Shown here: piece by piece, positions 2,598-19,654 of the stretch
Layout: every line of letters begins with the position of its first letter
How positions within the stretch are numbered: position 1 is the first letter of the stretch
Assembly: GCA_000934665.2 (NCBI GenBank)
Contig: KZ538090.1
Coordinates: 114,493 to 134,492 of the forward strand
Reading direction: 5' to 3'
DNA: 20,000 nucleotides
Source: Catajapyx aquilonaris
Taxonomy: Eukaryota
Made by a program: the position numbers and the translations under genes
The notes under the pieces: generated by a model
The model's database searches: none
Seen by the model: the letters and a program-made list of their open reading frames with translations, nothing else
What the model was told of the DNA's origin: nothing

Positions 2598-5195
2598 ATG
2601 ATGACGGAGACGCAAGGCCAGGAGAGGTCGTCCAATGTGACAACAATTACTCATACGACAGTGGGCAATCCGACGACTGTGACAGTCAAGACCGAACCAG
2701 GACAAGGAGGAGTACAGTGGTTGAAGTTCAATCCAGCGTACTTTGCGACGTTACCAGGAATTCTGCTGCTCATCGAAGCGGTGAGTGCACCTGTTGCCGT
2801 ACAGCGCAGTTGGACAGTGTGACAATTCCATAAGTGTCCACACATTGACGACAATTTAAATGACATAATAACGATTTTGAGCACTTTAAGATGTGCCGCA
2901 TTTGATTAACAGTGTACGCCTCGTTTTATTTCCGTTGCGCCAGCCGCAAATAAGGGCGTTTTGCACTTACATCACCTCTCCATATATGACCAGGTGACGT
3001 AACTTATAATTGTTGACCTATGCAAAAAAAAAGCACGGAAACAATCGCAATTAGCACGATTGTTTACACGTCACTGCTCTAAAAATAACCATAGTTATAT
3101 CAGGAGGGTGCCAAACTGATATTTCATCAATCAACGAATTATATATTCTTAGCCCCCGCACTATACAGGCGTGCCAGTCATACTAATTAACATGCATATG
3201 TGCAGACCTTGGACACCACCACTAACTAGCAGGGCGCATGTGTATGACATGGTGCAAATCTCAATCACTCTTCGTGGGATGGGGGAGTTCATCATCCTTT
3301 TGGTTGGACTTTTATTGCTTCCGATGAGAGGAGGATGAGCGGTGTCTTCTGAAAGCGAATTTGCAAAAAAAAAGGGATAGTTTCCATTCTAAGCTTGAAG
3401 TCGCCGCCGTGGCCTTGGTTGGCTGCTTGCGTTGCATGACGACACTTCCGCTTCGTTTTTACCAAACGTGGCTCGATCTGCCTGCCAGTGAGGAGGTTTG
3501 GCAAAAACGTGGGATAACAGACATGCAATGCAGAAATGATAGGATAGATGAGGCTACTGTGTAATTGGGTGTGCATCAATTAATCAGGGAGTAATTGAAC
3601 CGTAATGAAATTCACATCACGATTAAACTGTGCAACCTAATGAAGATTAATGGCTCTTAGTTATGCCCGACATGTCTGGCTACAAAGTCAATTTGTGAGG
3701 TATTTTTAAACGTTATTGTGAGAAAGTATGTTGTTTACCTTGAACTTTTTCAGGCATTAGGGAAATGCCAGGATTGGAACATGCCGTATGCAAGAATGAC
3801 ACGCAGGTGTTATTTTTGTCTATGGAGGGTCTACATGAATACAGATTACAATGTGGCTTGAGGCATTGTTAGGAATAATACACTGAGGCCATGCTCACCC
3901 TGTATTTTGTAACTGGTTGTATCATTTTATGCACATTGCCATGAGAAAAAATTAGGATGAGCAGACATTTGAAGCACAAATCACGATCCAGTGAACACTT
4001 GCGTAAATATTATAGCAATATTCTGGCTGTTTTCTCAGAAAACGTGGGGCGGGATATCTTATCAGACCGGGAAAGTGTTGGTCCAAATCCCAAGTCTCAT
4101 CGGCTAACTCATGTTTGTGGGAGGAAACAGGGGACTCTTTCTTTATATAATTTTTTCTTCGAAAGTGAAGAAATCAGGCCGCAAAATCCACAAACCTTGG
4201 ACAAACTTTTTCTTTCGGATCCGTTCTTTCGGTTGTCACTGACAGAGAAGATAACAGACGAGAGCGTAGTCCACGCAAAAAACTGTCCAAAACGTCATGA
4301 CCCGAACTGCTTATCATAATACCGATATTATCATGCTCACATGTCTATTTCAGTATGAGCTAAAATGATAATGCTACATGATTACAAAAAGTGCGCAATT
4401 TCCATCCCCAGCATTGCTAAAACTTCCGCAATAAAAAAAGGCTCTAATAGCCTCGTTTAGAGTTGGCTTATTCTGGCTCATGGCCGACCATCAACAGACG
4501 TCGATCACCTTAGTCTGCCCAAATATGCCAATCAATCTGGTTATGGACGTGTTTAAATAAATAAAAAAATTCATTCCTTGCAGCTGCTGGGCATCATCTG
4601 TATGTCCCTGGCATCCCCTGCATACCTCTCAGGGACGCACTGGTTCCTGTTCGTGGTGGTCATCTGCTTCATCATCACAGTCATCATCGTTTTTCTCTAC
4701 CTACTGTCCATTCGAGACGCTCTAAAACTGCCTGTCGACTGGAACAATTTGGTAAGACGCTAATCCAAGGTGCAAGTCAGCAGAAAATATGACAACCCAT
4801 GTTGTACGTTGCAGGAATTCTTCTACACAGTCGGAGCCACGCTGCTGTACTTCACAGCCTTCATTACTCAGCTGGCCATTTGGGCACAGGTTGATCCCTC
4901 GCTTCATTCCTACTACAGTCATGGACGGCAAATTGTCAGCAATATCAAGGCGAAAAATATTGCTGCTGGGGTACGTCATCATATACTTGAACACTTTTAA
5001 TAAAATAATTCGGTTGGATTGGATTGACATATCGTCACCAAATTAATTCCTGGTTGCACATATCCGGTTCGTTGGTGACCTATGTACTGAGACGAATTCT
5101 TTCCTTCACAGGTGATCGCATTATTCAACTGCATCGCTTACGGAATTGGAGCGTTCTTCCTGTACAAGCGTCTGAGGGAAAGCCGCGCAAATTGA
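2598..5195 (+). CDS. MARVEL-domain protein, CMTM4/plasmolipin-like (196 aa)
   Basis: Exons 2598-2780, 4584-4751, 4815-4970 and 5112-5195; all introns GT-AG, phase 0. Kozak-like CACCATG. The spliced protein has NPAYFATLPGILLLIEA|LLGIICMSLASP...HWFLFVVVICFIIT...LPVDW...|EFFYTVGATLLYFTAF...NIAAG|VIALFNCIAYGIGAFFLY, giving four TM helices with the typical MARVEL pattern. Confidence 0.93.
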
Positions 5196-8178: not shown

Positions 8179-9626
8179 ATGTCCCATACTGTCACAGTGA
8201 CCCATACTACTCACACCACGTCTTCATCTGCCATATTGGTCAACACAGGCTATGCTTCCTCAGTGCCTGGTCTACTTAAGTTGGCCCAAGTGGTATGATC
8301 ATTTACTACAACACAAGTGCAGTAAAATGTGACATGGCAATGAAATAAACGGAATCTTTACAGATTGTGGGTGCAATCTGTGTGGGAATAGTTGGCCACT
8401 ACTTCAGTTACAATACCAGCCGTTACTACAACCTGTATGTATCGGAGCTCTTCTTCCTCCTGATTGCGACGAGCTGTCTGATTGCATCGTCGTGTCTACT
8501 CATTTCCTGCCTGCTCTCTCTCTCCACTGCGGCCATACTCCCAAAGACTCTCTTTGTAAGTAGCATACATGCCATTAAAAAAACTGCTGCATAGTATTTG
8601 AATATTGTATAGAACCGTATTGTACGTTCAACACACTAGGTTCAAGTCTAGTGCACTGGCAGATTTGCTGAGAGTACAAATATACAATTTCATACATTAA
8701 ATTGAACCCTACAATATGGACTGCTCCCATCAACAATGATGGCTACTCAAAGCTACTCCAAGTATGGGTGAACCACCGTGGGGTGAACCATGATAGTACT
8801 CCTGATTTATATTTAAAAAATAAAAGCACCACAGAACATTGGTGAAAGTGGCTCATGTAAATTCTAGGATTGCAATAGTTGAACAATTATTATATTACTC
8901 TTATACATGTAAGTTACATATTCTGAATTTTTATAAAGTGGCCAATTTTAAAACTTGTTTCCAGGAAATAGTTTACCATGGATGTGCATTTGTTTTGTAC
9001 CTTGCTGCTGGTATAACTCTCCTTATTCCTGTGTCTGACAAAAGATATTACTACCATGAGGCTTATCTTGCTGCTGCGGTAAGTCTAGAATTTAAGGCGC
9101 ACAACGTAAAGAAATCACAGGTTGATACCTGATCTGATGTGTGGCATGCCATCACTATTTGCATGATTACCCAGAGTGAAATGACACTATCTTGGATCAG
9201 GATGCACATGTCAACCTCAGCTGATTTCTTTACAGATGGGGGATTCTGTTTGAAACTAGCATTTTCATTTTCCTTAGGTGATTATTTACCTCTCACTGCT
9301 GCTGTTTCTTAATTTTTGTGCTTCACTGAATTTGGTGGTGGATGTCGTAAGAAGAAATGCAATTTACGAATACAGTTTACATGAGAGGGGTTATGGCAGT
9401 AAAATATTTGCGGGGGTGAGTGCCAAATCAAACAAGACTGCTTTCTCATGTAATTAAGAGCATGCATTTTATATCTGAGAATGATTCTTACAATTACCAT
9501 TAATGAGATTGCAATCTGTCATATACATCGTGATTCTTAATTCTGTTTCAGATCCTTGGACTGATCAATGCCGCCCTCTACCTCATCAGTTTGGTGTTTG
9601 CTGTTCGCACATACAGACTGGCATAA
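8179..9626 (+). CDS. MARVEL-domain protein, second paralogue (164 aa with exon 3a)
   Basis: Exons 8179-8292, 8364-8555, 8965-9078 and 9552-9626; GT-AG, phase 0. MSHTVTVTHTTHTTSSSAILVNTGYASSVPGLLKLAQV|IVGAICVGIV...ELFFLLIATSCLI...LPKTLF|EIVYHGCAFVLYLAAG...YLAAA|ILGLINAALYLISLVFAVRTYRLA*. Confidence 0.92.
9106..9233 (+). other. Long intronic stem-loop between exon 3a and exon 3b
   Basis: Three stacked helices: GTAAAGAAATCA (9106-9117) with TGATTTCTTTAC (9222-9233), AGGTTGATA (9119-9127) with TGTCAACCT (9209-9217, one G-U), and CCTGATC (9128-9134) with GATCAGG (9195-9201). Confidence 0.8.
9278..9415 (+). CDS. Putative duplicated alternative exon 3b of MARVEL gene 2 (46 codons)
   Basis: Acceptor TTTTCATTTTCCTTAG, donor GGG|GTGAGT, 138 nt, phase 0/0, no stop. 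It encodes VIIYLSLLLFLNFCASLNLVVDVVRRNAIYEYSLHERGYGSKIFAG, colinear with exon 3a. Confidence 0.75.
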
Positions 9627-10684
9627 ACAACTAAACAAGACTCTCGATTCTTGGATTCACAAGAGCTAGTTATGCATTTAATATCTGTGTGCACATAGAA
9701 AATTAATTTTACATAACTGAATGTCATGAAACAATTGCTTAATTAATATTTTTCATTGCCCTTAGGAAGTGAGATTAACTTAAGGGTTTGTACGCATCTT
9801 TGCAGAAAATTTCAATTATATTTTCTACATTTAATACCATAGTAAATCATGAAATACTTAAATGAACCAGTCAGATGAAAACCAGGACATTCCATTTAAT
9901 AAATTAAACATAGGCTTTTACTGTACTTAAAATAGAAAAGAAACTTGTGCCTTGATGTATAACAAGATGCACTTGCAGTAACTTCACACATAATACCATT
10001 TTGATAGCACAGGAATTTTAAATTGATCTGTTATCTACATGAATCTCGAGAAATGTGTTCACAGGATAGTAATCTAGTAATGAATGTTGTACACATTATA
10101 TAAGATGTTTTCCAATATTTTGCGGACATGAATGCAAACCTGCAAGACTGATAAAGAATGATCTTCAATGCCATACAAAGTCCAGAAAAGACTTGATGAT
10201 ACAAATATTAGGACTTCCACAGCACATCACAAAGTCTTCACAGTGTGAATCTCCTGCTTTTTCAGAGTACAACAAGTGCCATTCTTACGCCTAATGCAAA
10301 GACTTGCCAATGTACTAATACATTCTTCAATAAAGGCCTTATTTAAAGTGATATATCCTTTTAATTGTGACATTTATTAAACAAGCAAATATCATCCAAA
10401 ATTGCAATATATTTAGGACTCAATAGGTTTGTAAATAATTGCTTCAGTATGCACCTAGGCATTCCAGGTGCAACAATGCAGCATGAACTGGATGAAGACA
10501 TAATTATAGTGCATTGTCACTGGAACTCCCAAACACAAACTCCCTGTGTCATCTGACCATTTTTAAAACTGTTAAACTGCTGCAGGTCATCTACCCTGTT
10601 TTTTTTTTTTTTGTGAATGTGTAAAAAAAAAAAATGTAGCTTCCTCATCCAGCCTTCCTCCTCAGCCTCCCAACATTTGGCAGT

Positions 10685-10830: not shown

Positions 10831-12040
10831 ATGAAGTCTAACCATGTGTCAGTGTCAGTGCCACAGCAAAAGTCATCTGGCATTGGTTGTCCATGCTGCT
10901 GCTGTTGTTGCACATGTCTTAACACTGGATTCTTGAAGACCACACCCGGAATTTTGAAAATTGTTCAACTGGTGAGTACTTCTTCCAGTGTGTGTGCATG
11001 TTAATACAATGAACACGTACGGGTACAAGCACACAAGTGATGATTATAAAGGGCCAGCTGCATGATCAATAGTAAATCCAGCAAGTGATTAAAGTGAATA
11101 ATTAGGATCAACTATTTGTTATGGATTTCCACCATGCAACCAGCACTAAAAGTAATAAATGTTGAGAAAAGATATGCACAGAAATGCCTTTTCCCACATT
11201 TTCACTGCAGGTAACTTTTTTTGACAGTTGAACTTCTGGTTTGATCAGTGTTTGCTTCATTTGGCTCATGGTACCCCTGATAAGTGTGCAATAATGCCCC
11301 CTTATCATGGAAATAAAACCATTTTATTATGCCTATGGACGATGACAGTTGCAATATGACATCATAAATTTGCATTTGTTTTCTCTGGGAGATTCTTACA
11401 TTTTCCTCATTCTCAAAATTTAATAAACAATAATCTGAGATTTCTAAAGAAGCACCCCAATAATTAGCATCATGGTCATCTCATTAATCTAATAGAAGAT
11501 ATTCCTTCATAGATTCTGGGAGGCATGTGCCAAAGTCTGCTTGTCAAGTATGGAATGGGCTATTCAGCTGTAATTGGCAGCTCATATTCAACTTTCCTGA
11601 CTACCGCTTCAGCTTGCCTGATGACAACTTCTGTTCTCCTCTTCTGCTACTTAATATCAGACAGATCTCATGGTCTCATCAGGAATTCAAATTTTGTAAG
11701 TATTAATATAATGAATAGAATTGCGTACACTGTTAATTCTTTCCGACATTTTAGGAGGTCATTTTCAATGCCGTGGCATGTGCTTTGTACTTGGGAGCAT
11801 CCTCGTTCCTGTCCTTCTCAGTCAATGTGTTCCTCTGGCCACTTTACATCATAACACCTTTCTTCCAAGTGTATCCAGCTATGACAGCTTGCTATGTGAG
11901 TGTAACCACATTAGATCTAAATTACCTCATGGTATATTTATATTTAATTTTCTCGCCCATAGGTGATGGGTTTAGTGGTTGGAATTCTGCATGGAGTGGA
12001 TGCATATTTTGCATATAAGCAGATCAAGAGTCTCTGCTAG
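10831..12040 (+). CDS. sing: Protein singles bar (MARVEL-domain myoblast fusion protein, 180 aa)
   Basis: Exons 10831-10971, 11513-11695, 11755-11895 and 11963-12040; GT-AG, phase 0. Recognised motifs: Cys-rich CCCCTC..FLKTTPGILK, ILGGMCQSL, FLTTASACLMTT, ITPFFQVYPAMTACY and GILHGVDAY. Confidence 0.92.
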
Positions 12041-16801: not shown

Positions 16802-17241
16802 CTACATTGCATACATCATATAGGATCCAATTTCTTCACAAAACTAAGAATTTTAGAACTAAAACATAGTGTGTACCAAATGAGGTGTTGGTTTTTATTG
16901 GTGATGCAACAGGCTGGTTATTGTTAAACAGTTTCTTTAAGATTTTCTGAAAAATTAGCTGCTAAACACACATTATGTATTCTAATAATATTATTCTGTT
17001 AACAGGCAGCTCCTGCTCACCACCTGATCAAAATGGCACCCTACTGGCGCCACACCTAGGGGCCACTTAGACCACATTGTATCTTTTGCACAACAAATTC
17101 CGAAAGTAACATTGCACTACATTGGTTTCATGAGAGATAAAGATGATTATGGGCTAGAAAAAGTACATTTCAAGAGGGTGACTAAACAATAAACATAAAA
17201 TAATCTCTATATATAAATGTGAATATTTGTACATATGTATA

Positions 17242-17638
17242 CAGGGTGGTCCAACTTTTTTGTCCGATCAGTTATTGACAAATTCGGCCTAAGCTGCTTA
17301 TGTTGTAGTGCGTTACCTGGCAACTCCGGCCGGCGGGCCAATTCAAACATCAGCACATGGAGAGTGCTTAGATGAGCACCATGTCGCACCTCTCAGAGTT
17401 GGAGTATGTGCAGGTTCTCATGGTGCTCCTCTGCCACTGGGGCCAGGTTAATTGTGTATTATTAGAGCCCTGGAAGCTCTTGGCTTATAAAAATTTATAA
17501 ATTTTGTTAATACTCGTCTCCATGTGCTGATGTTTGAATTGGCCCGCCGACCGGGGTTGCCAGGTAACGCACTACAACATAAGCAGCTTAGGCCGAATTT
17601 ATCAATAGCTGTTCGGACAAAAAAGTTGGACCACCCTG
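17242..17638. mobile_element. Tc1/mariner-type MITE, 397 bp, with 122-bp TIRs
   Basis: TA|CAGGGTGGTCCAAC...GTTGGACCACCCTG|TA. TIRs 17242-17363 and 17517-17638 differ at 5 positions, with a TA target duplication. Confidence 0.93.
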
Positions 17639-17860
17639 TATTTATTTATCACGCCTAATTAAGCCACTTCCTGGGTACGCAGAGCGCTGAAATTTCTTCC
17701 ACCCATGCCTTACCTATCGGTGAACCTGGGAAAAGTCCCAAAACCGCACTTTTTTGAGTCTAAGGGCGGTTTTCAGCAGCCTTTCCAATTGTCTAGCAAC
17801 CTTCGCTGACAACAAGCCAAAAGGAAGGATCTGCCTGTCTCACTCATGTCAGGGAGCATA

Positions 17861-18157
17861 TACTACATAAGAGGCGCTAACATTCGATTTTTGCGTCTCT
17901 CTGTTTTGGGCGTGTTGCCAAGGCTGGCGGCCATTTTGAATTGTGTGCAACGCCAACGAGGTATAAATAGGGTACAGGCAGGCCATCAAGGTCCGCCATC
18001 TTTGATGGTTTTGGCTGCCATGGCAATACATGGCAATAACAATTTACTTACCCATTCCAATATCGAATTAAATTCACGTGTGTTCTTGCCGTGTAGTTGC
18101 CATGGCCGCCAAAACCATCAAAGATGGCGGACATAAGTTTGCGCCTCTTATGTAGTA
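17861..18157. mobile_element. About 295-bp MITE with 21-bp TIRs and internal 52-bp palindrome
   Basis: TACTACATAAGAGGCGCTAAC and GTTTGCGCCTCTTATGTAGTA (1 mismatch); internal arms at 17991-18041 and 18081-18132. Confidence 0.8.
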
Positions 18158-18594: not shown

Positions 18595-19654
18595 GTTCCT
18601 GCGCTTGGGAAGTCAGGTAGGGTGCATGCGCACTTACTTCAGGGGGCGTGGCACCTGATTTGCCGAACATCCAAACAGCCCAGGAAGTCAGATTCCTGAA
18701 TTGCCGTATACGCCTAGTATATGCTCCCTGCTCATGTTCTAAAATAATCAACATTGCATATTCAACAATGAAAACAATAGAACAACGGGCAGGTTGGCAA
18801 GAATAATTGCAGTACACAGCAGTCATAGGGTATTGTAACAACGGTTGGAGTACTTCGGGGAGTGCCAAGATCAGCAGTACCGAACAATACAGTACTGTAC
18901 AGTACACATCGATGGAACCTGCCACAAGGCAAAAGGAAATACAAAAGGGGAGCAGGTATACGTTCGTGTGTTTGGTCTCGGATGCGTTCATGTTTAGATT
19001 GTGTTATCATCAAACATTTCAAAAAATTATGATACAAAATTTTCAAATGTAATTTTAAAACGGGGGTTAATGTGAAACAGCGTAAAATGGAGCGGGGTAT
19101 AACGGGTGCTTCCCGTGTAGGAAATCTTTCTTGGCAGCTTCACAACCAGCAGGCTATCATAATTTTCAATTGATCATTGTGATTTTGTTTATGGATCATC
19201 ATTTCCGTGCTCTGGACATGTGATAGGAGACATGGCAAAGGATACAACGAACATGGTAATAATTTTTCCCCGGGTCGTAAATAAAAAGCGCAAAATCAGA
19301 CATTTGCGTTTCCTGGTGTTCTGAAATAGGTCGCCTGGTTTTGATAATGGCCTACGGACTTATTGCAGTATGATTTACTGCGACCTGTGCTTATGAAAGG
19401 GCTCCCAAGGCTCCCCATGAGGATACAGGTAGTACCCGTTTTATGCTGGAAATTGGTTCCCGCAAAACGCGGCGTAAAATGAAAAGACATAAAACGAGAC
19501 AAAATTATAATGGAAATAAATTAGATAGGTTCCAAGATTTCCAAAAATTTCCCTGATACAGTTCTTAAATTGCAGTTTTTAATGCCGACTATTTCAAACA
19601 TTTATAATTCACGTTTAAGAGCGCGCTCTAGGCTACGCTATTCATTGTTGCGGG

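Follow-up and report, generated by a model that had tools for sequence, protein, structure and literature searches.

A real, stable stem-loop, referred to below as the hairpin, lies in the intron that separates two alternative exons of a predicted MARVEL-domain gene of Catajapyx aquilonaris, within a stretch of 20,000 nucleotides (nt) taken from contig KZ538090.1 of NCBI GenBank assembly GCA_000934665.2 (positions 114,493 to 134,492 of the forward strand; this whole stretch is called the window and is numbered from its first letter). The gene occupies the plus strand and comprises five exons, 1, 2, 3a, 3b and 4, each of a length divisible by three and separated by introns that are all of the GT..AG type, with exons 3a and 3b encoding alternative versions of the third transmembrane segment (TM3). 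An earlier note on this DNA had proposed that the hairpin masks a decoy acceptor, controls the choice between 3a and 3b, or both. On present evidence the likelier explanation is an incidental inverted repeat in the intron, which would serve at most as a passive mask for the cryptic acceptor, a reading that we place first while holding it at slightly under an even chance. The hairpin is probably lineage-specific and outside the conserved 3a/3b design, being absent from the orthologous introns examined, and by pairing tests and sequence comparison it is neither a docking/selector switch nor an ancestral part of the 3a/3b system.

Positions 9106-9235 of the plus strand fold into one long stem-loop with a minimum free energy (MFE) of -44.3 kcal/mol, compared with a mean of -28.3 (standard deviation 3.43) for dinucleotide shuffles, none of 200 of which folded as well (z -4.66). 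At this fixed site the hairpin therefore clearly exceeds shuffled controls. The 28 paired positions in three helices of 12, 9 and 7 base pairs (bp) that had been described from the letters are borne out by the MFE structure, in which 9106-9137 pairs with 9192-9233 to form the outer stem, and have pairing probabilities of 0.88-1.0 when folded in a 900-nt context; the inner TCACT/AGTGA pairing that had been claimed alongside them was not recovered, the MFE using other inner pairs instead. The hairpin is retained when the entire 3a-3b intron is folded. Thirty-one of the 34 outer pairs are Watson-Crick, the bulges of 1, 2 and 7 nt are all on the 3' side, and the arms differ by these indels, with one transition only within the three helices. 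The minus strand of the same segment folds less well (-40.6 kcal/mol, z -3.05, two of 200 shuffles as good). Pairing that is nearly all Watson-Crick, together with folding of both strands, is as expected from an inverted repeat at the DNA level. The extent given earlier also stands, since 9106-9233 accounts for 128 nt of the 199-nt intron at 9079-9277, and excision of this segment leaves an intron of 71 nt, the size of intron 1. It is suggested that the structure is a lineage-specific stem-loop formed locally in the pre-mRNA; the imperfect inverted repeat of about 128 nt that encodes it would most likely have originated as a small inverted-repeat insertion or a palindromic duplication, i.e. 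a decayed element resembling a miniature inverted-repeat transposable element (MITE). Both the origin by insertion and any effect on splicing are what we infer.

The decoy acceptor at the foot of the hairpin was confirmed as described, with the AG at 9234-9235, a pyrimidine tract in the 3' arm, and a reading from 9236 that gives MGDSV and a stop. The AG is preceded by ...gatttctttac, and the 11-mer TCTTTACAGAT at 9227-9237 is identical to the real exon-2 acceptor (8355-8365). Because all 11 nt equal the gene's own exon-2 acceptor, the decoy appears to be a credible site. The 11-nt identity was also considered as the trace of a duplication and rejected as such (BLAST E 0.58), which points to a coincidence of acceptor-like sequence. 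The decoy pyrimidine tract at 9222-9233 is base-paired with a probability of at least 0.96, and AGs at 9234 and 9258, each leading to an early stop, lie between the stem and the pyrimidine tract of the true acceptor. Folding would remove the decoy pyrimidine tract and the nearby CTGAT from single-stranded form, and the most probable effect, if any, would be a passive one, in which the cryptic AG at 9234 is made unavailable as a competitor of the genuine 3b acceptor at 9277. Intron stems that occlude cryptic 3' splice sites are described for yeast in PMC12350175.

The exons on either side of the hairpin belong to a pair that is found well beyond C. aquilonaris. Alignment sorts the TM3 exons into two classes, 3a, which starts with E-[IVL]-[VI]-Y-H and ends with [LI]-A-A-[AG], and 3b, which carries the signature R-N-..-Y/H-....-E-.-G-[YF]-..-[KR]-.-F-[AC]-[GA]. 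Two Daphnia-like metagenome or assembly contigs, L001 and L002, contain exon 2, 3a, 3b and exon 4 with the order kept. A HMMER search with exon 2 recovered 102 representatives at E <= 0.001, and among these a 3a-type exon was present in 33 (E <= 0.01) and a 3b-type exon in two, namely P0006, an amphipod gene model in which exon 2 is joined to 3b, and P0038, a thrips model in which 3a continues through an unspliced in-frame intron of 207 nt into 3b and then exon 4. P0038 is labelled 'CTP synthase, partial' by its source and is in fact a MARVEL protein. Use of the L001 3b exon as a query led to the NCBI Daphnia records P0107 (D. pulicaria isoform X1), which corresponds to exon 2-3b-exon 4, and P0108 (D. 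pulex isoform X1), which includes both 3a and 3b and has 209 amino acids with five hydrophobic segments; P0013 and P0036, from run assemblies, correspond to exon 2-3a-exon 4. Between L001 and L002, exon 3b (1054-1185 and 907-1038, respectively) is identical at 132 of 132 nt and exon 3a at 120 of 123, while identity is lowest in the 3a-3b intron (84%). The full identity of 3b, set against 84-89% for the introns that flank it, suggests that synonymous sites are constrained too. Together, these comparisons make it well supported that 3a and 3b are old homologous alternative TM3 exons common to Daphnia, a thrips and an amphipod. The earlier premise of two alternative TM3 exons was upheld, and the pair has been kept in distant relatives; strict mutual exclusivity is not supported, because the annotated D. 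pulex isoform P0108 holds both. The isoform part of the 3a/3b pair is already known from NCBI annotation, and the comparative result is the more solid by-product of the analysis.

Neither of the two orthologous 3a-3b introns contains a comparable structure. The L001 intron (880-1053) gave z 0.20 (116 of 200 shuffles did as well) and the L002 intron (746-906) z 0.01 (99 of 200); a repeat run returned z 0.19 and 0.27. The remaining introns of the two loci were not significantly structured either, and the hairpin sequence showed no match beyond chance words to the introns of L001 and L002. The expectation that the pairing would be conserved or covary across orthologous introns was thus contradicted, as both relatives keep 3a and 3b without such a structure. 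Since these relatives share the exon pair but have no hairpin, the structure probably represents an inverted repeat of recent date rather than a conserved switch of splicing. The two orthologues are close to each other and distant from the window (about 70% protein identity over exon 2), and at this distance the comparison would exclude a structure of ancient origin, while one limited to near relatives of the source species could have been missed.

The introns also differ in composition. The L001 and L002 3a-3b introns are 68-70% pyrimidine, compared with 48-53% in the other introns of these loci, and contain only three AGs each, at the donor, 16 nt from the start of the intron and at the acceptor, which in L001 leaves the final 157 nt ahead of the acceptor AG free of AG; in both, a yUnAy motif lies 27 nt from the donor. 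The 3a-3b intron of the window is 50% pyrimidine and has 12 AGs, the last at 9219, 9234, 9258 and 9276, and the hairpin fills the space where L001 and L002 carry the pyrimidine tract.

Hairpin-forming repeats are present elsewhere in the window. The largest is an element of about 403 nt at 17239-17641, whose 125-nt arms are 96% complementary, with termini CAGGGTGGTCC.../...GGACCACCCTG and a TA on both flanks, and which looks like a Tc1/mariner-type MITE or a foldback element. Two nested inverted repeats follow at 17861-18157 and 17991-18132, with outer arms of 21 nt (95% complementary) and inner arms of 36 nt (97%), and no local fold in the window is more stable than that of the inner pair (-84 kcal/mol). 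At 264-314, a GC-rich hairpin of 17 perfect bp encloses a loop of 17 nt. These clear inverted-repeat elements suggest that hairpin-forming repeats are common in this genome. A low-complexity inverted repeat, in which at least 12 T are followed after about 10 nt by 12 A, is located at 10599-10634.

Several observations weigh against an incidental inverted repeat with, at most, a masking effect. No clear target-site duplication was found, as the flanks CACAAC and AGATGG share nothing, and a possible TA/TA reading, shifted one step into the stem, is uninformative because TA is self-complementary. There is no second copy of the hairpin within the 20-kb window. Since L001 and L002 are distant, a role conserved among close relatives alone could have escaped the comparison. 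The 11-nt match between the decoy and a working acceptor makes a selective reason for masking plausible, which counts against pure neutrality. Finally, our own extrapolation of the local shuffle rates to both strands of 20 kb yields a chance expectation of about 0.2 to 1 such structures. Pattern scans for the terminal repeats gave no matches in prokaryotic and viral collections, which do not contain the host and are therefore silent on copy number.

Table 1. Exons, introns and hairpin parts of the MARVEL-type gene in the window (TM, transmembrane segment).
Feature	Position	Strand	Description
Exon 1	8179-8292	+	114 nt; start codon, MSHTVTVTHTT...
Intron 1	8293-8363	+	71 nt
Exon 2	8364-8555	+	192 nt; predicted TM1 and TM2; acceptor context TCTTTACAG|AT identical to that of the decoy
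Exon 3a	8965-9078	+	114 nt, 38 codons; canonical version of TM3
3a-3b intron	9079-9277	+	199 nt, GT..AG, phase 0
Helix 1, 5' arm	9106-9117	+	pairs with 9222-9233, 12 bp, all Watson-Crick; pair probabilities 0.96-1.0
Lone pair	9118/9220	+	MFE; probability 0.62 in 900-nt context
Helix 2, 5' arm	9119-9127	+	9 bp including one G.U; partner 9209-9217
Helix 3, 5' arm	9128-9137	+	7 strong bp (9128-9134 with 9195-9201) and 3 weaker pairs; partner 9192-9201
Apical region	9138-9191	+	two small low-confidence inner hairpins; probabilities 0.29-0.5; MFE and centroid disagree
Helix 3, 3' arm	9192-9201	+	7-nt bulge 9202-9208 between helix 3 and helix 2
Helix 2, 3' arm	9209-9217	+	MFE pairs
Helix 1, 3' arm	9222-9233	+	decoy polypyrimidine tract; holds the best yUnAy branch-like motif, CTGAT, with its A at 9224
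Decoy acceptor AG	9234-9235	+	unpaired, adjoins the stem just outside it; use reads MGDSV-stop, 9236-9253
Exon 3b	9278-9415	+	138 nt, 46 codons; alternative version of TM3; signature RN..Y....E.GY..K.FAG common to L001/L002, P0006 and P0038
Exon 4	9552-9626	+	75 nt; predicted TM4, and stop

The assignment of the gene as encoding a four-pass MARVEL-domain protein was made through scanned homologues and is thus a predicted one. MARVEL (PF01284) was found in all six homologues scanned, above the cut-off of 32.8 bits, with the four full-length ones scoring 48-64 bits and being 51-58% identical to exon 2 over the matched stretch; one scanned homologue carries the source name CKLF-like MARVEL protein. 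Single exons of the window gave no useful match in Pfam. Exon 2 returned weak leads only in the protein atlas (scores <= 0.88), which included MARVEL and chemokine-like factor clusters, and a first word-indexed protein search returned one read-through open reading frame, P0001. The gene is flanked on the same strand by two MARVEL-type paralogues, one upstream at about 2631-5195 and one downstream, just beyond the T/A repeat at 10599-10634, at about 10918-12019 (exon limits approximate); tblastn found no 3b-like exon in either.

A more active part for the hairpin, in which the stem controls the 3a/3b choice, is possible but on balance doubtful. Sequestration of CTGAT and of the pyrimidine tract upstream of 3b could favour the joining of 3a to exon 4, or the placing of the 3a donor and the 3b branch region in a loop of about 48 nt could hinder the joining of 3a to 3b. 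In its favour, the stem is stable, has high pairing probabilities in context, sits precisely between two conserved alternative exons, and holds the only well-placed yUnAy 45-55 nt upstream of the 3b acceptor. With 50% pyrimidine and 12 AGs against 68-70% and three in L001 and L002, the window intron is without their pyrimidine-rich, AG-poor design and may need another device. The lengths of 3a and 3b are moreover both multiples of three, so that nonsense-mediated decay cannot police double inclusion; mechanisms that enforce exon exclusivity are listed in PMC6071210. These points are met by the lack of conservation in L001 and L002, by the Daphnia isoform P0108, in which 3a is joined to 3b and exclusivity is hence not absolute, and by the geometry of the intron itself. 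If the branch point lies near 9253, a position guessed from its motif, the linkers would measure 27 and about 20 nt (about 47 nt in all), a zipper-stem geometry that would aid removal of the 3a-3b intron, since linkers of 42-85 nt are, according to PMC12350175, those that aid rather than block splicing in yeast. The earlier note had also pointed out that folding shortens the intron to about 71 nt. The subtraction is correct (199 minus 128), but the effect is not specific, as the predicted end-to-end path over sampled structures was 16.0 for the 3a-3b intron and 15.3 (standard deviation 4.7) for its shuffles, a shortening no greater than in shuffled introns. 'Effective intron length' was accordingly set aside as a test, being uninformative where shuffled introns give an equally short path.

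A regulator of the kind that the earlier note had in mind, by analogy with Dscam1, 14-3-3zeta and Mhc, would also call for competing pairings, and none were found. Docking/selector control needs one element with at least two mutually exclusive partners, as stated in PMC6071210. For the left arm, the strongest alternative pairing is a 20-bp match to the exon-2 acceptor region at 8360-8383 (-24.6 kcal/mol), which 27 of 300 shuffles equalled and which was rejected as no better than shuffles. The best second partner of the right arm is 8759-8807 in intron 2 (-23.0 kcal/mol), equalled by 207 of 300 shuffles. As neither arm has a significant second partner, a docking/selector arrangement is not indicated, and the analogy was not sustained, the hairpin being self-contained and local, with no second partner and no counterpart in L001 or L002. 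Other short inverted repeats near 3a and 3b (8852-8867 with 9085-9094 and 9371-9385; 9377-9386 with 9444-9453) were discarded as being at chance level for a region of 1.4 kb.

It is rather improbable that the hairpin reflects nothing more than chance complementarity in an AT-rich intron, with arms that have neither a common origin nor a function, although it is statistically less exceptional than its fixed-site score suggests. When the surrounding 800 nt were shuffled, seven of 300 replicates yielded some local structure (span <= 140) of equal or greater stability. From base composition we estimate that 20 kb should contain about 0.6 perfect inverted repeats of 12 nt within 200 nt; another 12-nt pair, unrelated to the hairpin, is present at 19023/19155. 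Ranked by raw energy, the hairpin comes only 13th among the non-overlapping stem-only duplexes of the plus strand and is missing from the 15 most stable local folds listed there. Chance is nevertheless hard to reconcile with the fixed-site z of -4.66 and 0 of 200 shuffles, with a stem-only duplex that just one of 195 shuffles of the local 1.1 kb could match, and with three in-register helices whose bulges are all one-sided. In a z-score scan of the plus strand from base 1 to about 11990, with 25 shuffles for each of 457 scanning windows and the frame phased on the hairpin, the hairpin ranked third, and eight scanning windows in five separate loci reached z <= -4.1, the top scores belonging to the GC-rich hairpin at 264-314; the strongest inverted repeats of the window (17239-17641, 17991-18132 and 17861-18157) lie beyond the scanned part. 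After correction for looking elsewhere the stem is only moderately unusual, and the hairpin is non-random, yet one among several comparably structured loci in this stretch.

The contrast in composition with L001 and L002 allows a further reading, to which we give little credence, in which the hairpin replaced a pyrimidine-rich, AG-free 3a-3b design: its insertion would have destroyed that design and been co-opted, so that the policing mechanism turned over. The fold would then restore a short effective distance from donor to branch point, hide the new cryptic acceptor and branch motif, and avert misjoining of 3a and 3b. A distant branch point with a long pyrimidine tract enforces the mutual exclusion of exons 2 and 3 of alpha-tropomyosin, and AG exclusion zones are reportedly a design of the same type as that of OGDH. 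The L001 and L002 3a-3b introns resemble this design, whereas the window intron, with its 50% pyrimidine and 12 AGs, does not fit it. In OGDH, according to PMC7969005, a distant branch point and a long polypyrimidine tract enforce the mutual exclusion of exons 4a and 4b.

Very improbable, finally, is the suggestion that the hairpin is the precursor of a small RNA (an intronic miRNA or siRNA hairpin) or an ADAR substrate: about 32 stacked pairs are present on the transcribed strand of the intron, with the plus strand having a slight folding advantage over the minus strand, but Rfam returned nothing at gathering score anywhere in the window, and relaxing the threshold to E <= 10 brought up two irrelevant weak matches, both outside the hairpin; the structure is not conserved in L001 or L002, the longest perfect helix, 12 bp, is short for editing, and, when compared with animal pre-miRNAs, which have a stem of about 33-35 bp, small symmetric bulges, a defined apical loop and a match to a known family, the hairpin has a one-sided 7-nt bulge that interrupts the would-be duplex, an irregular apex of 54 nt and no overlapping Rfam match.

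An incidental inverted repeat that may passively mask the decoy has its closest functional parallels in yeast. The downstream and zipper stems of RPS23B and RPS17B are, as presented in PMC12350175, local intron stems like the one described here, with published zipper linkers of 42-85 nt, a range into which the candidate linkers of 27 nt and about 20-44 nt fall if the branch point guessed from its motif is taken. As modelled, the cryptic 3' splice-site region would be held double-stranded and the donor side would be brought to the branch and acceptor side. Unlike the yeast stems, the present one is a predicted fold alone and concerns an animal gene, in which the stem lies between alternative exons and the AG is just outside the helix. 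If the stem did suppress the decoy or bias the 3a/3b choice, it would provide an animal case of a young, possibly transposon-derived hairpin guarding splice-site choice, and would imply that the device policing a conserved exon pair can be replaced from one lineage to another.

Tandem homologous alternative exons with nearby intronic pairing are a feature shared with the insect genes Dscam1, 14-3-3zeta, Mhc, MRP1 and srp, but the competing structures of these genes, as described in PMC6071210, have mutually exclusive partners or exon-flanking pairings and are conserved, whereas the hairpin considered here is alone and unconserved. With MITEs it has in common its small size of about 128 nt, a perfect 12-bp terminal inverted repeat and an intronic location, and the TA-flanked element with long inverted arms at 17239-17641 shows a likely relative of this class nearby. 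With regard to the gene itself, MARVELD3 is, according to PMC4494069, another MARVEL-domain gene with two homologous alternative exons, E3a and E3b, that have long been kept; in this vertebrate gene of a different subfamily each of the two exons encodes a whole MARVEL domain, whereas in the gene described here the alternative exons encode only TM3 and the loop that follows it.

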